Shown piece after piece: positions 1,969 through 29,693 of a stretch of DNA of 29,693 nt (the first letter of the stretch is position 1; each line of letters opens with the position of its first letter). The DNA comes from a virus. Taxonomy: Duplodnaviria; Heunggongvirae; Uroviricota; Caudoviricetes. The translations under genes and the position numbers were made by a program. Location: the IMG/VR virus record IMGVR_UViG_2778261251_000001; one strand, given 5' to 3'. The notes under the pieces were generated by a model. The model worked only from the letters and a program-made list of their open reading frames with translations. It was not told where the DNA came from and did no database searches.

Positions 1969-2241
1969 TCATCTCGCCGTCAGTTGTTTTGATTTCCGGT
2001 AGCCTGCCGCGTAAATAGCTACGTTTGGCAGGCAAATACTTCCACTGCATTCATCTGCCTTCTTGCAGCGAAGGCTTCCGAGTGATGCTGCTTTATCTGC
2101 TCTGACGCAACCAGAGAGCTTTAGCGCAATTTTTCGCGCCAGTCGCTGTTCTTGCATTGCCTGTTCACGTTGAGCCTGTCTGCGTGCTCTGCGGCGATTT
2201 CTGGCGTTATCGTCAGCCAGATATGTAATGACTACTGTCAT
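1969..2241 (-). CDS. N: antitermination protein N-like
   Basis: 90-aa ORF with arginine-rich motif (NARNRRRARRQAQREQ) near the N-terminus and a C-terminal VAIYAAGYRKSKQLTAR resembling P22 gp24; directly downstream of a boxA/boxB nut site on the same strand. Confidence 0.8.
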   Translation of the reverse strand: MTVVITYLADDNARNRRRARRQAQREQAMQEQRLARKIALKLSGCVRADKAASLGSLRCKKADECSGSICLPNVAIYAAGYRKSKQLTAR

Positions 2242-2996: not shown

Positions 2997-3713
2997 TCAA
3001 ACCAGCCTTAGTTTTGTCTCAATTGCAACGCCTATAATCTTGCAGTTTCCATTGATTGGCACGAGAGGCCATGCAGGGTTAAGTCCCTTGAGGTATTTAT
3101 TTCCGCCGTCGATTATCAGCTTCTTGAATGTTGCTTCGTTAGAGTCAGAAAGTTTTGCTATGACCAAGCTGCCGTTGATCGCCTCCCTTCCGGTATCGAA
3201 AAGAACGAATGTTCCCTCTGGAATGCTTAACCCAACCGGTGCCGTCATTGAATCACCTTCCACTTTAAGCCAGAACGCATTACCTTGAATATGCGCGTCA
3301 GACTCAAGCCAAACATCTATGTCTTTAATGGTGTATGGTTCGCATGCTTCACACCACGAGCCAGCCTGGATACTGCTTAACACCGGATACCTCTTTCCTG
3401 CTCTGTATTCCCCTGCATACCTTACGTTGGCATCGCTCTTAAGGCTTTCTGCCTGTTCTGCAACCTTGGCAGCAATTGACTGGCTAAAATCAGCAATTGA
3501 GACTTGCAACAAACGTGCAAAACCAGATGCGACCTCAACGTTTAGCGCGTTTCTGCCATTAAGATAATGCCCTACCGCTCCTTGGGTGATACCCAGTTCA
3601 TCAGCGATTGAGTATTGGGTTATTCCCAATTCTTTCTTTTTTGACTCATACAAAGCCTTAAGCCGCTTAGCGTCTTCGAGCTGTTCTGTCGTCAGTGATT
3701 TTTTATTTTCCAT
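2997..3713 (-). CDS. cI: CI-type prophage repressor (HTH N-domain plus LexA/S24-like autocleavage C-domain)
   Basis: 238 aa; N-terminus KKSLTTEQLEDAKRLKALYESKKKELGITQ resembles lambda CI; an Ala-Gly in SIQAGSW, a GDSM serine motif and FKKL lysine motif fit the S24 self-cleaving fold; no Shine-Dalgarno upstream, so a leaderless pRM-type transcript is plausible. Confidence 0.9.
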   Translation of the reverse strand: MENKKSLTTEQLEDAKRLKALYESKKKELGITQYSIADELGITQGAVGHYLNGRNALNVEVASGFARLLQVSIADFSQSIAAKVAEQAESLKSDANVRYAGEYRAGKRYPVLSSIQAGSWCEACEPYTIKDIDVWLESDAHIQGNAFWLKVEGDSMTAPVGLSIPEGTFVLFDTGREAINGSLVIAKLSDSNEATFKKLIIDGGNKYLKGLNPAWPLVPINGNCKIIGVAIETKLRLV

Positions 3714-8102: not shown

Positions 8103-8626
8103 CTATCAAATCAAATACGCCAGCACACGACAAGGACTGCTGGCAAACGCCGCTTTGGCTTTTTGATGCACTGGATATTGAGTTTGGATTCTGGCTGGAT
8201 TCGGCAGCGAGCGACAAAAATGCTCTGTGTGCTCACTGGCTAACTGAGGCCGACGACGCGCTCAATTCTGAGTGGGTAAGCCACGGTGCAATCTGGAATA
8301 ACCCACCGTACAGCAATATCAGGCCGTGGGTGGAAAAAGCCGCTGAGCAGTGCATACAACAGCGACAGACGGTAGTGATGCTTGTGCCAGAGGATATGTC
8401 AGTCGGATGGTTCAGCAAGGCTCTGGAGAGTGTCGACGAAGTTCGCATTATCACTGATGGACGGATTAATTTTATCGAACCATCGACGGGGCTGGAGAAG
8501 AAGGGAAACAGCAAAGGCTCCATGCTGCTGATTTGGCGACCGTTCATCAGTCCTCGACGGATGTTTACTACCGTATCCAAAGCGGCATTGATAGCGATCG
8601 GGCAGGGCGTCAGGAGGGCGGCATGA
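8099..8626 (+). CDS. phage DNA N6-adenine methyltransferase (Dam-like, NPPY motif)
   Basis: [16 protein letters not shown] and NNPPYS motifs typical of the phage Dam MTase family; ATG at 8099 overlaps the ninB stop (ATGA), and its own stop overlaps the ninE start. Confidence 0.75.
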
Positions 8627-8799
8627 GGCGACAGCGACGAAGTTTCACCGACATCATCTGCGAAAACTGCAAATACCTTCCAACGAAACGCTCCAGAAAT
8701 AAACGCAAGCCAATCCCAAAAGAATCTGACGTAAAAACCTTCAACTACACGGCTCACCTGTGGGATATCCGGTGGCTAAGACATCGTGCGAGGAAATGA
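8623..8799 (+). CDS. ninE: NinE
   Basis: [58 protein letters not shown] matches recalled lambda NinE. Confidence 0.8.
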
Positions 8800-9203
8800 C
8801 AATGCTTTTAATTCAACCTGGATTTGGCCTTAGCATCAAAAAAGGACACATGTTTGGCGAGAAAGAGTCACAACGAAAAATGGTGTCTATCCGGTTGCCA
8901 TTTATCAGTATTTATTGGCTAAACAGGGAGGCAACAAATTATTGGTATACATGCGCCAGAGCAGCATTTAACGACCCTGACTGGTTTGTGAAAAACCACC
9001 ATGCGGTTCGTCAGGCAAAGAGAAAGGCCAATACGACATACATGAAGGCGTATCGAAAAGCATGGAAAGAACACCGCGATCGATACCAGCAAGACATGGA
9101 AAAGCTTGAATCAGAAAACATGGAATTAAGACGAAAGCTTGGTGAAGCAAAACGAGACATTGATGCTTACAAGCGACTTTTTAATGGTGAAAGCCATGCT
9201 TAG
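8796..9203 (+). CDS. hypothetical protein with basic, coiled-coil-like C-terminus
   Basis: ATG at 8796 overlaps the ninE stop; C-terminal [27 protein letters not shown] has a leucine-zipper-like heptad character; start codon uncertain (track starts at GTG 8760). Confidence 0.5.
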
Positions 9204-9372
9204 CCCATCCCAAACCCTTCAATACCAGAAAGAAAGCGTCGAGCGAGCTTTAACGTGCGCTAACTGCGGTCAGAAGCTGCATGTGCTTGAAGTTCATGTG
9301 TGTGAGCACTGCTGCGCAGAACTGATGAGCGATCCGAATAGCTCAATGTACGAGGAAGAAGACGATGAATGA
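9196..9372 (+). CDS. ninF: NinF
   Basis: [51 protein letters not shown] matches recalled lambda NinF. Confidence 0.8.
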   Translation: MLSPSQTLQYQKESVERALTCANCGQKLHVLEVHVCEHCCAELMSDPNSSMYEEEDDE

Positions 9373-10087
9373 GTTAATAAATGGCAATGCCATCAAAATG
9401 ACAAGCATTGAAATCGCTGAGTTGGTGGGTAAGCGTCATGACAATGTGAAACGTACCATCGAAACGCTGGCTAAAAATGGTGTTATCCGGCTTCCTCAAA
9501 TTGAGGTTTCCGAAAGAATCAATAACTTAGGGTTCAATGTTCAGTACGAGCATTACGTCTTCGAAGGCGAACAAGGTAAGCGAGATAGTATTGTTGTTGT
9601 TGCCCAGTTGTCGCCAGAGTTCACCGCTCGCCTTGTTGACCGCTGGCGAGAGCTTGAAGAAACTGCGGCTAATATCCCCAAAACGCTACCAGAAGCGTTG
9701 CGCCTTGCTGCTGATCTTGCTGAGCAGAAAATGCAACTGGAAAACCAGCTCGCAATTGCCGCACCTAAAGTTGAGTTTGCCGATCGCGTTGGCGAGGCCA
9801 GCGGAATTTTGATTGGAAACTTTGCAAAGGTTGTTGGAATTGGTCAAAACAAACTGTTTGCGTGGATGCGCGATCACAAAATCCTTATTGCTTCAGGTTC
9901 CCGGCGCAATGTGCCAATGCAGGAATATATGGATCGCGGCTATTTCACAGTGAAAGAAACAGCGGTCAATACAAATCACGGAATACAGATATCGTTCACC
10001 ACAAAAATCACCGGGCGTGGCCAACAGTGGCTGACCAGAAAGCTGCTCGATAACGGAATGCTGAAAGTAACAGGGGAGGCTGCTTAA
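9365..10087 (+). CDS. phage antirepressor (Rha/Ant-type N-domain plus KilA-C-type C-domain)
   Basis: 240 aa; N-terminal IEIAELVGKRHDNVKRTIETL resembles the DNA-binding domain of Rha/antirepressor proteins; inserted between ninF and the ybcO/rusA pair. Confidence 0.65.
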   Translation: MNELINGNAIKMTSIEIAELVGKRHDNVKRTIETLAKNGVIRLPQIEVSERINNLGFNVQYEHYVFEGEQGKRDSIVVVAQLSPEFTARLVDRWRELEETAANIPKTLPEALRLAADLAEQKMQLENQLAIAAPKVEFADRVGEASGILIGNFAKVVGIGQNKLFAWMRDHKILIASGSRRNVPMQEYMDRGYFTVKETAVNTNHGIQISFTTKITGRGQQWLTRKLLDNGMLKVTGEAA

Positions 10088-10377
10088 TGGCCAATCTACG
10101 CAAAGAAGCACGCGGCAGAGAATGTCAGGTACGTATTTACGGCGTATGCAATGGCAATCCTGAAACTACAGTTCTGGCACATTACCGGATGGCTGGAATT
10201 TGCGGAACGGGAATGAAGCCTGACGACCTGATCGGCGCATGGGCTTGTAGCGCGTGTCACGATGAAATCGACCGACGCACCCATAATCTCGACAACAAAG
10301 ACGCCAGACTTTACCACCTCGAAGGCGTGATCAGGACGCAGGCGATACTGCTGAAGGAGGGGAAGATTAAGCCATGA
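10087..10377 (+). CDS. YbcO-like DUF1364 protein (Cys/His-rich, putative nuclease)
   Basis: MANLRKEARGRECQVRIYGVCNGNPETTVLAHYRMAGICGTG...CSACHDEIDRRTH resembles E. coli DLP12 YbcO, which precedes rusA there as well. Confidence 0.7.
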   Translation: MANLRKEARGRECQVRIYGVCNGNPETTVLAHYRMAGICGTGMKPDDLIGAWACSACHDEIDRRTHNLDNKDARLYHLEGVIRTQAILLKEGKIKP

Positions 10378-10736
10378 ACGAATATCAGTTTGTGCTTCCT
10401 TACCCGCCGTCGGTGAATACCTACTGGCGAAGACGGGGAAGCCAATACTACATCAGCGATAAAGGCCAGAAATACCGAAAAGACGTTCAGCAAATCATTC
10501 GCCAACTCAAGTTAGACATTTTCACCAAATCACGACTCCGTATCAAAGTCATCGCAGACGTTCCAGACTCCCGCCGCCGCGACCTCGACAACATCCTGAA
10601 AGGTTTACTCGACTCCCTTATCCACGCCGGATTTGCGGAAGACGACGAGCAATTCGATGACATTCGCGTAATTCGTGGTGTGAAAGTACCAGGCGGAAGG
10701 CTTGGAATAAAAATCACCGAACTGGAGAACGTATGA
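10374..10736 (+). CDS. rusA: RusA Holliday junction resolvase
   Basis: 120 aa; LPYPPSVNTYWRRRG and DLDNILKGLLDSL motifs characteristic of the RusA family; overlapping start and stop with neighbours. Confidence 0.85.
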   Translation: MNEYQFVLPYPPSVNTYWRRRGSQYYISDKGQKYRKDVQQIIRQLKLDIFTKSRLRIKVIADVPDSRRRDLDNILKGLLDSLIHAGFAEDDEQFDDIRVIRGVKVPGGRLGIKITELENV

Positions 10737-10921
10737 ACGCCACAATTCAAACGATACCAGAACTTCTTATCCAGACACGAGGCAATCAGACCGAAGTGGC
10801 GAGGAGGCTTTCCTGTGCAAGAGGAACAGTGCTCAAGTACAACAGAGACAGCAAAGGCGAGCGTCACGCAATAGTTAACGGCGTCCTGATGGTCAAACAG
10901 GGCAAGAGGGGAAGACGATGA
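10733..10921 (+). CDS. ninH: NinH
   Basis: ...GNQTEVARRLSCARGTVLKYNRDSKGERHAIVNGVLMV resembles recalled lambda NinH. Confidence 0.75.
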   Translation: MNATIQTIPELLIQTRGNQTEVARRLSCARGTVLKYNRDSKGERHAIVNGVLMVKQGKRGRR

Positions 10922-11541
10922 GACTCGAAAGCGTAGCTAAATTTCATTCTCCAAAAAGCCCGATGATGAGCGACTCACCACGGGCTACAGCTTCTGACTC
11001 TCTTTCCGGTACTGATGTGATGGCTGCTATGGGGATGGCGCAATCACAAGCCGGATTCGGTATGGCTGCATTCTGCGGTAAGCATGAACTCAGCCAGAAC
11101 GACAAACAAAAGGCTATCAACTATCTGATGCAATTTGCACACAAGGTATCGGGGAAATACCGTGGTGTGGCAAAGCTTGAAGGAAATACTAAGGCAAAGG
11201 TACTGCAAGTGCTCGCAACATTCGCTTATGCGGATTATTGCCGTAGTGCCGCGACGCCGGGCGCAAGATGCAGAGATTGCCACGGTACAGGCCGTGCGGT
11301 TGATATAGCCAAAACAGAGCAGTGGGGGAGAGTTGTTGAGAAAGAGTGCGGAAGATGCAAAGGTGTCGGCTATTCAAGAATGCCAGCAAGCGCCGCATAT
11401 CGCGCTGTAACGATGCTAATCCCAAACCTTACTCAACCCACCTGGTCACGCACTGTTAAGCCGCTGTATGACGCTCTGGTGGTGCAATGCCACAAAGAAG
11501 AGTCAATCGCAGACAACATTTTGAATGCGGTCACACGTTAG
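10918..11541 (+). CDS. Q: late antiterminator Q (lambda type)
   Basis: 207 aa beginning MRLESVAKFHSPKSPMMSDSPRATASDSLSGTDVMAAMGMAQSQAGFG with CRDCHGTGRA...CGRCKG zinc-finger motifs, as recalled for lambda Q. Confidence 0.9.
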   Translation: MRLESVAKFHSPKSPMMSDSPRATASDSLSGTDVMAAMGMAQSQAGFGMAAFCGKHELSQNDKQKAINYLMQFAHKVSGKYRGVAKLEGNTKAKVLQVLATFAYADYCRSAATPGARCRDCHGTGRAVDIAKTEQWGRVVEKECGRCKGVGYSRMPASAAYRAVTMLIPNLTQPTWSRTVKPLYDALVVQCHKEESIADNILNAVTR

Positions 11542-11583
11542 CAGCATGATTGCCACGGATGGCAACATATTAACGGCATGATA

Positions 11584-11640
11584 TTGACTTTTTGAATAAA
11601 GTTGGGTAAATTTGACCCAACGATGGGTTAATTCGCTCGT
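11584..11640 (+). promoter_or_regulatory. late promoter pR-prime (-35 TTGACT 11584-11589, -10 TAAATT 11607-11612) with overlapping qut region
   Basis: Hexamers with a 17-nt spacer directly downstream of Q; sequence context matches recalled lambda pR-prime. Confidence 0.7.
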
Positions 11641-11815: not shown

Positions 11816-11890
11816 GGGTCAGTCGTATAAAGGTCATTACGGAAGGCTGTTAACCTTCTTATCGTGGTTCGAGTCCACGCTGTCCCGCCA
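11816..11890 (+). tRNA. tRNA-like sequence, anticodon GUU (Asn), possibly slightly degenerate
   Basis: Hand-folded cloverleaf: acceptor GGGUCAG/CUGUCCC (one U-U mismatch), anticodon stem GAAGG/CCUUC with loop CUGUUAA, T-arm CGUGG-UUCGAGU-CCACG, discriminator G then CCA; D-stem has one mismatch. Confidence 0.45.
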
Positions 11891-11895
11891 AATAT

Positions 11896-11971
11896 GCTGG
11901 TTTAGCTCCAATGGTAGAGCGGTCGCCTTGTAAGCGAATGGGTAGCGGTTCAAGTCCGTTAACCAGCACCA
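11896..11971 (+). tRNA. tRNA-like sequence, anticodon UGU (Thr)
   Basis: Hand-folded: acceptor GCUGGUU/AACCAGC (7/7), D-stem GCUC/GAGC, anticodon loop CUUGUAA, T-loop UUCAAGU, discriminator A then CCA, 76 nt; one mismatch at the base of the anticodon stem. Confidence 0.55.
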
Positions 11972-12213: not shown

Positions 12214-12537
12214 ATGAAGATGCCAGAAAAACATGACCTGTTAGCCGCCATTCTCGCGGCAAAGGAACAAGGCATCGGGGCAATCCTTGCGTTTGCAATG
12301 GCGTACCTTCGCGGCAGATATAATGGCGGTGCGTTTACAAAAACAGTAATCGACGCAACGATGTGCGCCATTATCGCCTGGTTCATTCGTGACCTTCTCG
12401 ACTTCGCCGGACTAAGTAGCAATCTCGCTTATATAACGAGCGTGTTTATCGGCTACATCGGTACTGACTCGATTGGTTCGCTTATCAAACGCTTCGCTGC
12501 TAAAAAAGCCGGAGTAGAAGATGGTGGAAATCAATAA
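12214..12537 (+). CDS. S: holin/antiholin S (dual start, S107/S105)
   Basis: [39 protein letters not shown]... as recalled for lambda S; ATG-AAG-ATG dual-start arrangement present. Confidence 0.9.
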
Positions 12538-12997
12538 TCAACGTAAGGCGTTCCTCGATATGCTGGCGTGGTCAGAGGGAACTGATAACGGACGGCAGAA
12601 AACCAGAAATCATGGTTATGACGTCATTGTAGGCGGAGAGCTATTCACTGATTACTCCGATCATCCTTGCAAACTTGTCACGCTAAACCCCAAACTCAAA
12701 TCAACAGCAGCCGGACGTTACCAGCTTCTTTCCCGTTGGTGGGATGCCTATCGTAAGCAGCTTGGCTTGAAAGATTTCTCTCCGAAAAGCCAGGACGCAG
12801 TTGCACTGCAGCAGATTAAAGAGCGTGGCGCTTTACCTATGATTGATCGCGGTGATATCCGTCAGGCAATCGACCGTTGCAGCAATATCTGGGCTTCACT
12901 GCCGGGCGCTGGTTATGGTCAGTTCGAGCATAAGGCTGACAGCCTGATTGCAAAATTCAAAGAAGCAGGCGGAGCGGTCAGAGAGATTGAGGTATGA
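12521..12997 (+). CDS. R: endolysin R (lytic transglycosylase)
   Basis: [49 protein letters not shown]... as recalled for lambda R; start overlaps the S stop. Confidence 0.9.
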
Positions 12998-13461
12998 GCA
13001 GAGTAACCGCGATTATCTCCGCTCTGGTTATTTGCATCATCGTCTGCCTGTCATGGGCTGTTAATCATTACCGTGATAACGCCATCGCCTACAAAGAACA
13101 GCGAGATAAAAAAGTCAGTGAGCTGAAGCAGGCGACCGCCACCATTACTGACATGCAGCAGCGCCAGCGTTCTGCTGATGCGCTCGATGCTAAATACACG
13201 AAGGAGTTAGCTGATGCGAAAGCTGAAAATGATGCTCTTCGGCGCAAGCTTGATAATGGTGGTCGGGTGTTCGTCAAAGGAAAATGCCCTGTGCCATCCT
13301 CAGCCGAAACCTCCGGCGCCTCCGGCATGGGCAATGATGCCACCGTCGAACTCTCTCCAGTTGCTGGACGAAACGTTCTCGGTGTCCGGGACGGAATTAT
13401 CCGCGACCAAACAGCACTGAGAACGCTTCAGGAATACATCAGGACGCAATGCCTTCGATGA
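12994..13461 (+). CDS. Rz: i-spanin Rz
   Basis: N-terminal TM segment ([20 protein letters not shown]) followed by a coiled-coil-rich periplasmic domain; start overlaps the R stop. Confidence 0.85.
13214..13420 (+). CDS. Rz1: o-spanin Rz1 (lipoprotein) embedded out of frame within Rz
   Basis: Signal peptide plus lipobox (MVVGC) and a proline-rich mature region [11 protein letters not shown]; fully nested in Rz in a different frame. Confidence 0.7.
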
Positions 13462-13634
13462 TAGCGATAATTTTACTCATCATCCTTCACATCTGGCTCT
13501 GTAGACAGGGTGGTGATCACTTCTGGAGTGAATCCAGATTAAACATCTCATTGCTGATGCTTGAAGTTGAGCATCTGGCGCGCGGTAAGGGGCTGCGTTG
13601 AGATAAGAGCCAGTCATTACAAATACCAGGATTT

Positions 13635-13660
13635 AGCCTCGCATTCGCGGGGCTTTTTTA
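13635..13660 (+). terminator. Rho-independent terminator after the lysis cassette
   Basis: AGCCTCGC-ATTC-GCGGGGCT stem-loop (one G-U pair) followed by TTTTTTA. Confidence 0.6.
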
Positions 13661-13806: not shown

Positions 13807-14349
13807 ATGAATTATCCAACTATCGTTAACGGCATCGATTTCCGAGAACTGATTTTTGTGGCAAACAACGATCCGGTTACAGATTCTTTTATGGTGGCAA
13901 AAGCATTTGGAAAGCTGCCGAAGAACGTGGTTCGTGACATTGAGCGAACCATAGAAGCTTGCCCTCCTGAGTTTGATACAAAGCTCAACTTTGAGCTTTG
14001 CTATAAAAACAATGAGTTACAGAATGGTAAGCCGCAAAAATTCTACCGTCTACGCAAGGATGGGTTGATGCTTTTGGTTATGTCCTACACCAAAAAAGAA
14101 GCAATGCGTATCAAAATTGCTTACATCAACGCATTTAACTGGATGTACGCCATGCTTCAGGTTGGTCATCGTCAATTTGAAGAAGAGAGAAATGCCGTAA
14201 TGCTGGAGTACATGAAAGAGAAGGATGTTGCCAGCATGTCAGGTCGCCTGCTAAATCGCTGGGGCAAAATTAAGAAGCCACAGTTGCTGGCTAGAATTGA
14301 ACGCCTTGAACAGCACGGGCAAACCGTAATCCCCGGACTCATCAATTAA
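13807..14349 (+). CDS. rha: Rha-family phage regulatory protein
   Basis: 180 aa; N-terminal region FVANNDPVTDSFMVAKAFGKLPKNVVRDIERTIE resembles the Rha family; P22 carries rha at the equivalent position between lysis genes and gene 3. Confidence 0.7.
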   Translation: MNYPTIVNGIDFRELIFVANNDPVTDSFMVAKAFGKLPKNVVRDIERTIEACPPEFDTKLNFELCYKNNELQNGKPQKFYRLRKDGLMLLVMSYTKKEAMRIKIAYINAFNWMYAMLQVGHRQFEEERNAVMLEYMKEKDVASMSGRLLNRWGKIKKPQLLARIERLEQHGQTVIPGLIN

Positions 14350-29195: not shown

Positions 29196-29693
29196 TTATC
29201 TAATGTTGCTGCTACTGTTGCATGTGACGGTATTCCCAAATCCTGAATTGCAGTTTGTATATGTGTCAACGCGTGTTGGGTAAGGTTGAGTTATAACAGG
29301 CTGGCGCGCTTTTTGCTCGATCGCTTGCATTGTGTTTACAGCCTGATAATTCAATAAAGCCTGCTGGAATGCTTGGCTTTGTGCTATTTGTTGGGCTTGT
29401 TCTTGGCTTTGTAATTGAACATAAAGATTCTGAAGCTCAAGTCTTGCCTGTGCGTCACTTATCTTGCCTTGATCGACACCTTGCCCGAGCATCTTCGCAG
29501 CAAGGACATACAGCTTAGGTGTTGGTGCTGATGCCATGCGTGAGTCGTTCTTCACGCTGGCATCAAGGCAATTAGCCATATCACTAAGCTTTGGATAGCG
29601 TTGCTCGCAACTTGCTTGGTAGTCACTTACTTTTGCGCATCCAGCCAGCAGAAGCGGGATAATTAATAGTGATTTTTTTATAAAGTTATTTAT
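29196..29693 (-). CDS. lipoprotein, N-terminus truncated by the window end; function unknown
   Basis: Minus-strand reading frame stays open to the window edge (...INNFIKKSLLIIPLLLAGCAKVSDYQ... upstream of the track ORF 29196..29579); lipobox LLAGC; Gln-rich helical mature region; stop at 29196-29198. Confidence 0.6.
   Translation of the reverse strand: MNNFIKKSLLIIPLLLAGCAKVSDYQASCEQRYPKLSDMANCLDASVKNDSRMASAPTPKLYVLAAKMLGQGVDQGKISDAQARLELQNLYVQLQSQEQAQQIAQSQAFQQALLNYQAVNTMQAIEQKARQPVITQPYPTRVDTYTNCNSGFGNTVTCNSSSNIR

Follow-up and report, generated by a model that had tools for sequence, protein, structure and literature searches.

Two Rha-domain genes of a lambdoid phage correspond to the known accessory genes roi and rha, labelled antirepressors from their domain content

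The lambdoid accessory genes roi and rha were first described in the 1980s and 1990s. Roi is said, in work by Clerget and Boccard from 1996, to bind within its own coding sequence, beside a site for IHF. [quoted passage not shown] The phi80 record carries a matching note on rha, ‘DNA synthesis inhibition in IHF- hosts’. In the literature since 1996, we found neither a direct genetic test of roi nor a description of roi as an antirepressor. Here we examined two genes with Rha domains in a 29,693-nt stretch of phage DNA (the window; IMG/VR record IMGVR_UViG_2778261251_000001). An initial annotation had read the first of them as an antirepressor inserted in the nin region and had pointed out the second after the lysis cassette. 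The two open reading frames (ORFs), at 9365–10087 and 13807–14349, are with near certainty roi and rha, each in its canonical position. Neither gene is new, and both are already annotated in many phage records.

The roi ORF (9365..10087, + strand) encodes a 240-amino-acid protein with Rha and KilAC domains, the orthologue of the Roi proteins of HK022, HK97 and HK620, and it lies exactly where the initial annotation had placed a Rha/Ant-type protein, between ninF and ybcO/rusA. By protein comparison, the product is 100% identical to the “DNA-binding protein Roi” of E212, 99% identical to HK620 Roi and 87% identical to HK022 Roi, the latter two having the same length as the protein of the window. 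No substantial difference separates it from the Roi proteins of HK022, HK97 and HK620, or from those of H-19B and the Stx phages. The N-terminal Phage_pRha domain (PF09669; amino acids 12–99, 9398..9661, + strand), presumed to be a DNA-binding module, scores 36.7 bits against a Pfam cutoff of 29.9 and shares 40% identity over 43 amino acids with its counterpart in P22 Rha. [quoted passage not shown] The Pfam matches in Roi, and those in Rha given below, are strong and above chance. The top PHROG for Roi is phrog_63, ‘anti-repressor Ant’ (E = 1e-99). Sequence searches of the PDB, in which the queries were Roi, Rha and a nine-sequence profile of the Roi family, returned no significant match, and a single-sequence AlphaFold2 model of Roi (mean pLDDT 42, pTM 0.28) was too poor for a fold search. 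A strand–helix–helix–hairpin succession predicted for amino acids 10–82 of Roi could suit a winged helix, in a model that is too poor to rely on.

In the window, roi is tightly fitted between its neighbours. The upstream gene is ninF (9196..9372, + strand; PF05810 and phrog_672 at amino acids 20–77 of the ORF 9139–9372, with an ATG at 9196), the E212 counterpart of which is annotated as 177 nt, and ninF and the start of roi overlap by 8 nt. Downstream, the stop codon of roi has one base in common with the ATG of a ybcO-like gene (DUF1364/HNH-like; 10087..10377, + strand; PF07102, 150 bits), the equivalent of HK620 HkbD and HK97 gp66. This gene is followed on the same strand by rusA, encoding a Holliday-junction resolvase (10374..10736; PF05866), by ninH (10733..10921; PF06322) and by the gene for the late antiterminator Q (10918..11541; PF03589, 192 bits), which ends the delayed-early nin operon. 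The same ninF–roi–ybcO–rusA–ninH–Q order is found in HK022, HK620, mEpX2 and E212 and, as judged by feature names, in HK97. Among the IMG/VR loci examined, NinF–Roi is present in 80 of 80, followed by YbcO in 78 and by RusA–NinH, with overlapping junctions. The Stx2a phages, with the order NinE–ant–Roi–NinG–NinH–Q, differ from the window in having ninG instead of ybcO–rusA downstream of roi and an extra ant gene upstream. The idea that roi is an unusual insertion is therefore contradicted: this is its usual slot in those five phages, in all of the IMG/VR loci examined and in Stx phages. To our knowledge, the established map of lambda shows ninF and ninG with no gene of this kind between them, and in the P22 record ninG comes directly after ninF. 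The roi junction was matched in 1,860 of 5,426 complete Escherichia coli genomes (about one-third), including 581 in which the match spans at least 80% of the junction, with up to six copies per genome.

This distribution bears on whether the genes do anything at all. They could be functionless passengers, or selfish mosaic modules carried along by the nin and late operons without regulating anything. In favour of this, both roi and rha are absent from lambda, which marks them as dispensable for a lambdoid life cycle. Truncated roi ORFs of 86 amino acids also occur, and natural IS629 insertions are found within roi of Stx2a phages (PMC4587872). However, intact full-length ORFs are kept across phages as different as HK97-like siphoviruses, P22-like podoviruses and Stx phages, the junctions are tightly overlapped and the KilAC half is near-invariant. 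Moreover, the Rha + KilAC architecture extends to phages of Vibrio, Psychrobacter, Campylobacter and Gram-positive hosts. We consider it very unlikely that the two genes are mere passengers.

The second Rha-domain gene was found after the lysis cassette, as the initial annotation had it. The rha gene (13807..14349, + strand), which has the ribosome-binding site AAGGTGA ahead of its ATG, encodes a 180-amino-acid Rha + ORF11CD3 protein homologous to those of P22 rha (orf201) and phi80 rha. Its Phage_pRha domain spans amino acids 25–113 (13879..14145, + strand; PF09669, 77 bits; TIGR02681, 85 bits against a cutoff of 45.95 bits), and its ORF11CD3 domain spans amino acids 125–176 (14179..14334, + strand; PF10549, 91 bits). 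The protein shares 99.4% identity with the ‘Rha protein’ of Shigella phage POCJ13 and, across its full 180 amino acids, 55% with P22 Rha (E = 3e-64); its identity with phi80 Rha is 35%. With both the P22 and the phi80 protein it shares the Phage_pRha N terminus and the place of its gene, between Rz/Rz1, which it directly follows, and the packaging genes; with P22 Rha it also shares the C-terminal ORF11CD3 domain, although P22 Rha has a 23-residue N-terminal extension that the protein of the window lacks. The lysis genes upstream encode a holin (12214–12537), an endolysin (12521–12997) and Rz (12994–13461). Between Rz and rha lies a strong terminator-like hairpin followed by a T-run (13635..13654, + strand; eight pairs, six of them GC, with the tail TTTTTTAT), and in the phi80 record a terminator is annotated at the corresponding site. 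Because rha follows Rz/Rz1 as it does in P22 and phi80, we assign it to the Q-dependent late operon.

Expression of roi from the delayed-early pR transcript, which the initial annotation had supposed, is supported. A promoter scan of the + strand from 8500 to 11584 found no sigma-70-like promoter, and roi overlaps the genes on both sides. For these reasons, the transcript that carries roi is almost certainly the delayed-early one from pR, antiterminated by N. The window also encodes an N-like early antiterminator (1969..2241, − strand; phrog_271, E = 1.7e-33), which is needed for pR transcription into the nin region.

On balance, we lean towards Roi and Rha being DNA-binding regulators rather than antirepressors. 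Both proteins appear to join a Rha-type N-terminal module, presumed to bind DNA through a winged helix, to an interchangeable C-terminal module, KilAC in Roi and ORF11CD3 in Rha. Roi would most likely act as a site-specific DNA-binding regulator, the activity or dosage of which host IHF may buffer; without IHF, Roi would block lytic growth of the phage. The phenotype described for Rha in IHF-deficient hosts is analogous. A perfect IHF consensus, WATCAANNNNTTR, lies within roi at 9517..9529 (+ strand; nt 153–165 of the gene), one of two perfect matches in the window, where 1.6 are expected. It occurs at the same position in HK620, HK022, mEpX2, E212 and both ETEC1738 prophages. HK022 and HK620 Roi share with Roi of the window the Rha + KilAC architecture, the slot in the nin region and the consensus at nt 153. 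A perfect consensus whose position is conserved in two diverged alleles fits the DNA-binding model. The same bases also code for the conserved peptide INNLG, which may partly explain why the consensus persists. A perfect in-gene consensus was not found in the Stx2a roi allele, in rha of the window or in phi80 rha, and a site universal to roi and rha was thus rejected. P22 rha, unlike rha of the window, does contain one.

The alleles of roi point in the same direction. Protein and DNA alignments confine their variation to amino acids ~22–65 of the Rha module (9428..9559, + strand), where three types are recognized: that of HK620 and the window, that of HK022 and mEpX2, and that of Stx2a. The segment in the window is therefore of the HK620 type and unlike that of HK022. 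Outside it, Roi is nearly invariant across alleles, including the whole of KilAC. Such confinement to the Rha module would fit alleles that differ in DNA-site specificity. Within the variable segment, a 27-nt island, GTTTCCGAAAGAATCAATAACTTAGGG (9506..9532, + strand), occurs once in the window and contains the perfect IHF consensus of roi. It is identical to P22 rha at 26 of 27 positions, compared with 47% across the remainder of the 43-codon alignment, and the longest exact word common to roi and P22 rha measures 16 nt, compared with 13 nt at most among 500 codon shuffles. A search within roi for direct or inverted repeats as candidate Roi operators yielded weak and imperfect ones only (for example, 9606–9654). 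When the identity of the two genes and the DNA-binding mechanism are judged together as one proposition, we regard it as probable.

The initial annotation was right that antirepressor-type domains are present, as Pfam detects both Rha and KilAC in Roi. The domain call stands, whereas the identity as an antirepressor does not follow from it: RefSeq and PHROGs apply the label ‘anti-repressor’ to such proteins by domain content alone, and the characterized relatives are defined by IHF-dependent growth inhibition. P22 Ant and the Ant proteins of Phi24B and other Stx phages resemble Roi and Rha in being phage-encoded and in often carrying the same annotation, and Phi24B Ant is, like Roi, encoded in the nin region, where its gene adjoins roi. 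Unlike Roi and Rha, however, they combine P22_AR_C with P22_AR_N or ORF6N, and P22 Ant, which belongs to the immI module, is subject to control by Arc, Mnt and sar. P22_AR_N, P22_AR_C or both were found in P22 Ant, in Stx-phage Ant and in the immI Ant of ETEC1738; Pfam finds neither domain in Roi or Rha of the window, and there are no Arc or Mnt neighbours beside roi or rha. A closely related prophage carries its immI module ahead of the tailspike gene, which corresponds to a place past the right end of the window.

It is unlikely that roi or rha serves as an antirepressor in the control of this phage's own immunity. The cI repressor (2997..3713, − strand) combines HTH_3 with Peptidase_S24 (84.6 bits) and is of the self-cleaving type, so this repressor needs no antirepressor. 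On this point our analysis is consistent with the initial annotation, which had assigned the protein no role in the phage's own immunity. LexA boxes (CTGT-N8-ACAG with at most one mismatch) were matched 13 times in the window against 10.7 expected. None lies upstream of roi, and the sole box-like match near rha, at 13493 (CTGG...), is about 300 bp upstream of the gene and within a conserved small ORF (13449–13601). An SOS-controlled antirepressor was rejected, because the matches are at chance level and none is suitably placed.

The initial annotation had instead proposed an action across prophages. Here Roi, and perhaps Rha, would be a true antirepressor, produced from the delayed-early (or late) transcript once this phage is induced. 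It would bind the repressors of co-resident heteroimmune prophages, inactivate them and thereby couple the induction of these prophages. The homologues speak against this in part through their hosts, as the Rha + KilAC architecture also occurs in proteins of Jerseyvirus SE2 and ICP1, which we take to be virulent phages. As a concept, cross-prophage antirepression is already published for the Gifsy and Fels-1 prophages (Lemire et al. 2011; PMC3121763), in which GfoA, GfhA, GftA and FsoA are actual examples. [quoted passage not shown] A self-cleaving cI would likewise leave any antirepressor of this phage to find its target elsewhere, and polylysogeny is common, given the up to six roi junctions per E. 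coli genome. In Stx phages, a different nin-region antirepressor adjoins roi and promotes induction (PMC3064807). Furthermore, the antirepressors Ant1 and Ant2 of P1 contain KilAC (PMC9043618), so the C-terminal half of Roi may bind protein. By contrast, GfoA, GfhA, GftA and FsoA are small proteins unrelated to Roi and Rha, are mostly LexA-controlled and target non-cleavable repressors, whereas the window has a cleavable S24 cI and no LexA box near roi or rha other than the match at 13493. Antirepressors proven in this phage group either use P22_AR_C or are of this small LexA-controlled kind (PMC3121763). Moreover, across heteroimmune phages it is the Rha module that varies and KilAC that is invariant, a pattern unexpected in a domain that has to follow diverse repressors, and the two roi-carrying prophages of ETEC1738 are homoimmune. 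As judged from the sequence, nothing supports cross-prophage antirepression by Roi or Rha, and we regard it as improbable.

KilAC barely varies among roi alleles, which would suit a conserved host target, and a candidate is offered by AriS of the Listeria phage phi10403S, the only protein of which the ANT/KilAC domain has been assayed by itself; that domain alone inhibits SOS and lysis (PMC9043618). By analogy, the KilAC half of Roi would dampen the host SOS response, probably via RecA, and the Rha half would regulate the phage's own genes. Any influence on co-resident prophages would in that case be an inhibition, exerted indirectly by way of lower RecA-dependent repressor cleavage. AriS and Roi share a homologous KilAC C terminus and an exchangeable N-terminal regulator module, which is AntA/B in AriS and Rha in Roi; the same KilAC activity is found for homologues with AntA/B or Bro-N N termini, and pRha + KilAC is listed among the AriS-like variants (PMC9043618). 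Over 117 amino acids, the KilAC half of Roi shares 33% identity (E = 5e-17) with a 259-amino-acid AntA + KilAC protein of Listeria phage LP-030-3, which matches AriS in length and architecture. However, 33% identity is no guarantee of a common target, and the host of Roi is Gram-negative, whereas the activity has been demonstrated in Firmicutes alone, for the most part under overexpression. AriS at native levels caused no measurable change in SOS (PMC9043618), and the IHF phenotype would be left unexplained. We therefore consider an AriS-like role unlikely, and favour the DNA-binding regulator.

There is also a slim chance that Roi-type (Rha + KilAC) and Rha-type proteins are trans-acting modulators of polylysogeny, in which, after induction of this phage, the invariant KilAC would act on heterologous repressors or, like AriS, on RecA and SOS, while the allele-variable Rha module and the IHF island would tie dosage to the phage itself and to host IHF. 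If this were true, roi would be a cross-prophage regulator widespread in E. coli, Stx phages included, that has been overlooked. Nothing in the DNA of the window itself points to a surprise, and the finding is an ordinary one. Its reach comes from how very common roi is, with junction matches in about one-third of complete E. coli genomes and with its presence in Stx phages. The chief use of the finding is as a caution in annotation: the label ‘anti-repressor’ on these proteins rests on their domains, whereas the genetics concern IHF-dependent growth inhibition.

Judged from its sequence, the window covers the early-right, late and head region of a P22-like mosaic lambdoid E. coli phage (Lederbergvirus, HK620/IME10/E212-type). 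It encodes an N-like antiterminator (1969–2241, − strand), a self-cleaving cI with helix-turn-helix and Peptidase_S24 domains (2997–3713, − strand), cII, an O-like initiator and a DnaB-type helicase, together with a nin region, Q, two tRNAs, a holin–endolysin–Rz cassette, and packaging and head genes of the P22 type. Accessory genes around the immunity region encode a superinfection-exclusion protein (phrog_1510; 471–782, − strand) and SieB (1371–1952, + strand), and a gene for a 122-aa protein (phrog_6534; 2609–2977, − strand) adjoins cI. At the right end, after the injection-protein genes, a 127-aa protein (phrog_6067; 29196–29579, − strand) is encoded where P22 has sieA/immI. The genes for tRNA-Asn(GTT) (11816–11890) and tRNA-Thr(TGT) (11896–11971) are flanked by Q and the holin gene and are downstream of where pR′ is expected; these two tRNA genes are also annotated in two prophages of E. 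coli ETEC1738.

The initial annotation had placed a 240-aa Rha/Ant-type protein at 9365–10087 and a second Rha-domain protein after the lysis cassette, at 13807–14349. Both ORFs were found at exactly these coordinates, and domain annotation detected Phage_pRha in both products and ANT/KilAC in the first. The 9365–10087 protein contains Phage_pRha at aa 12–99 (36.7 bits) and ANT/KilAC at aa 126–228 (115 bits), and is 100% identical to 'DNA-binding protein Roi' of Escherichia phage E212, 99% identical to HK620 Roi and 87% identical to HK022 Roi. The second protein contains Phage_pRha at aa 25–113 (77 bits) and ORF11CD3 at aa 125–176 (91 bits), and is also matched by NCBIfam TIGR02681. It is 99.4% identical to the 'Rha protein' of Shigella phage POCJ13, 55% identical to P22 Rha (orf201) over its whole length, ORF11CD3 C terminus included, and 35% identical to phi80 Rha. 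These ORFs are almost certainly the already known genes roi and rha.

The neighbours of roi are likewise those described: NinF is encoded upstream, and a YbcO-like protein and RusA downstream, then NinH and Q. We take lambda to have no gene in this slot after ninF, as had been pointed out, and the slot is also empty in the P22 record; the position is nevertheless not unusual. The order ninF–roi–(ybcO/HkbD/gp66)–rusA–ninH–Q is common to the window, HK022, HK620, E212 and mEpX2, and HK97 agrees, to judge from its feature names in the matched region. Roi relatives are encoded in 558 IMG/VR stretches; in the best 80 of these, NinF–Roi is found in all 80 and YbcO comes next in 78, then RusA–NinH, with overlapping stop and start codons at the nin junctions. 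The ninF–roi–ybcO junction matches in 1,860 of 5,426 complete E. coli genomes (581 at ≥80% of its length), at up to six places per genome. In Stx2a phages, for which roi in the nin region has been described previously (PMC3430580), the order is NinE–ant–Roi–NinG–NinH–Q. This is thus the standard place for roi in much of the lambdoid family, rather than an insertion specific to this phage. The ORF at 8760–9203 (phrog_1511), which separates ninF from the Dam methylase gene, has a counterpart in just 19 of the 80 near-identical loci with roi and is therefore a variable nin-region moron.

As in P22 and phi80, rha lies directly after Rz/Rz1 and ahead of the packaging genes, and thus belongs to the late operon, which Q-modified polymerase transcribes. 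A conserved 50-aa ORF (phrog_11822, E = 9e-38; 13449–13601) overlaps the end of Rz, and next comes a strong terminator-like hairpin (13635–13654), just upstream of rha, where phi80 has an annotated terminator.

Both genes were defined genetically by a single phenotype, the inhibition of lytic growth in hosts lacking integration host factor (IHF). This was reported for roi by Clerget & Boccard 1996 (cited in PMC3430580 and PMC4587872), and for rha of phi80 and P22 by Mozola & Friedman 1985 and Henthorn & Friedman 1995 (via PMC4936722). The phi80 record describes rha with 'DNA synthesis inhibition in IHF- hosts'. In 1996 Clerget and Boccard reportedly described Roi as a helix-turn-helix DNA-binding protein with a site within its own gene, beside an IHF site. 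The window agrees with this description: a putative IHF site, one of only two perfect consensus matches in the 29.7 kb, lies within roi at 9517–9529. Its codon position is identical in HK620, HK022, mEpX2, E212 and the two ETEC1738 prophages, and is kept despite strong divergence between HK022 and the window in the segment around it; the chance of the motif arising from codon usage alone, given the encoded peptide, is about 4.5%. Single-sequence AlphaFold modelling of Roi gave a pLDDT of 42, and PDB sequence searches with Roi and Rha returned no relatives.

The roi consensus sits within a 27-nt island (9506–9532, GTTTCCGAAAGAATCAATAACTTAGGG) that is identical at 26 of 27 positions to P22 rha (39824–39850 of the P22 record), whereas the rest of the 43-codon alignment is 47% identical. 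Identical residues use identical codons in 8/8 cases inside the island versus 5/9 outside, and its 16-nt exact word was not reached in 500 codon shuffles (maximum 13). At least 118 IMG/VR loci carry the exact element, within genes of three kinds that differ in their C-terminal domain: roi-type, P22-rha-type, and the same N-terminal module joined to a third domain. This distribution suggests that the two IHF-phenotype genes have in common a cis element, or a patch that was exchanged recently. The IHF consensus is not universal, being absent from the roi allele of Stx2a phages and from rha of both the window and phi80.

The third architecture, in which the Roi-like Rha module and the 27-nt element are fused to an unrelated C-terminal domain (204–243 aa), was seen in IMG/VR loci L107, L120, L155, L156, L169, L172, L178 and L195. 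Truncated 86-aa roi ORFs with the N-terminal Rha module only occur in loci L111, L142, L148 and L183. Stx2a phage Stx2_14040 encodes a similar 235-aa Rha-only protein (L089, 3001–3708) directly after cro, in the immunity region and not the nin region; it is 66% identical to Roi aa 1–99 and lacks KilAC. For roi itself there are at least three alleles (HK620/window, HK022/mEpX2 and Stx2a), which differ almost only in aa 22–65 of the Rha module (9428–9559), and the KilAC half hardly varies between heteroimmune phages, a pattern that suggests that each allele recognises its own target.

An antirepressor made from the delayed-early pR transcript had initially been proposed as able to inactivate the repressors of co-resident prophages during induction. 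The reasoning about expression was sound, and no promoter of its own was detected for roi; the antirepressor label itself comes from domain content only. KilAC is also present in P1 Ant1 and Ant2 (PMC9043618), so the C-terminal half of Roi may bind protein. However, P22_AR_C is present in all proven antirepressors of this phage group, namely P22 Ant, the Phi24B/Stx nin-region Ant (PMC3064807) and the immI Ant of the closely related P22-like ETEC1738 prophage, and the domain search found it in neither Roi nor Rha. Nor was a LexA box or an own promoter found in the window for roi or rha, and the phage's own cI is self-cleaving. The variation in aa 22–65 beside a near-invariant KilAC is easier to reconcile with variable DNA-site specificity than with a domain that tracks diverse repressors. 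Moreover, Rha+KilAC homologues occur in Jerseyvirus SE2 and in ICP1, both of them virulent and not known to have a repressor of their own, and in the large Bacillus/Lactobacillus phages Stahl and Satyr, which argues against 'antirepressor' as a general description of the family.

E. coli ETEC1738 carries its two prophages at 1.63 Mb and 3.80 Mb. Their cI, cro, cII and O proteins are identical, making them homoimmune co-residents, and they also have the nin block from Dam to NinH in common, with roi in it, but their late regions are wholly different (P22-like versus lambda-like head). The P22-like prophage has an immI module (Arc, Mnt and P22-type Ant) before its tailspike gene, in a region that would correspond to DNA beyond the window's right end.

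Cross-prophage antirepression is plausible in principle and has already been described elsewhere: Gifsy antirepressors target non-cognate repressors, and Gifsy-2 is induced by FsoA of Fels-1, a protein that the Fels-1 repressor controls and that plays no part in the induction of Fels-1 itself (PMC3121763). No feature of the window supports such a role for Roi or Rha specifically, and we regard it as very unlikely. An AriS-like, indirect effect of Roi on co-resident prophages via SOS is also unlikely, if slightly less so. The only KilAC domain assayed alone, that of Listeria phage phi10403S AriS, inhibits the SOS response and not a repressor, and pRha+KilAC is listed among AriS-like architectures (PMC9043618); the KilAC half of Roi shares 33% identity, over 117 aa, with a Listeria phage protein that has the architecture of AriS. 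The most likely mechanism, which we favour at somewhat better than even chances, is DNA-binding regulation through the Rha module, with IHF buffering the action of the regulator.
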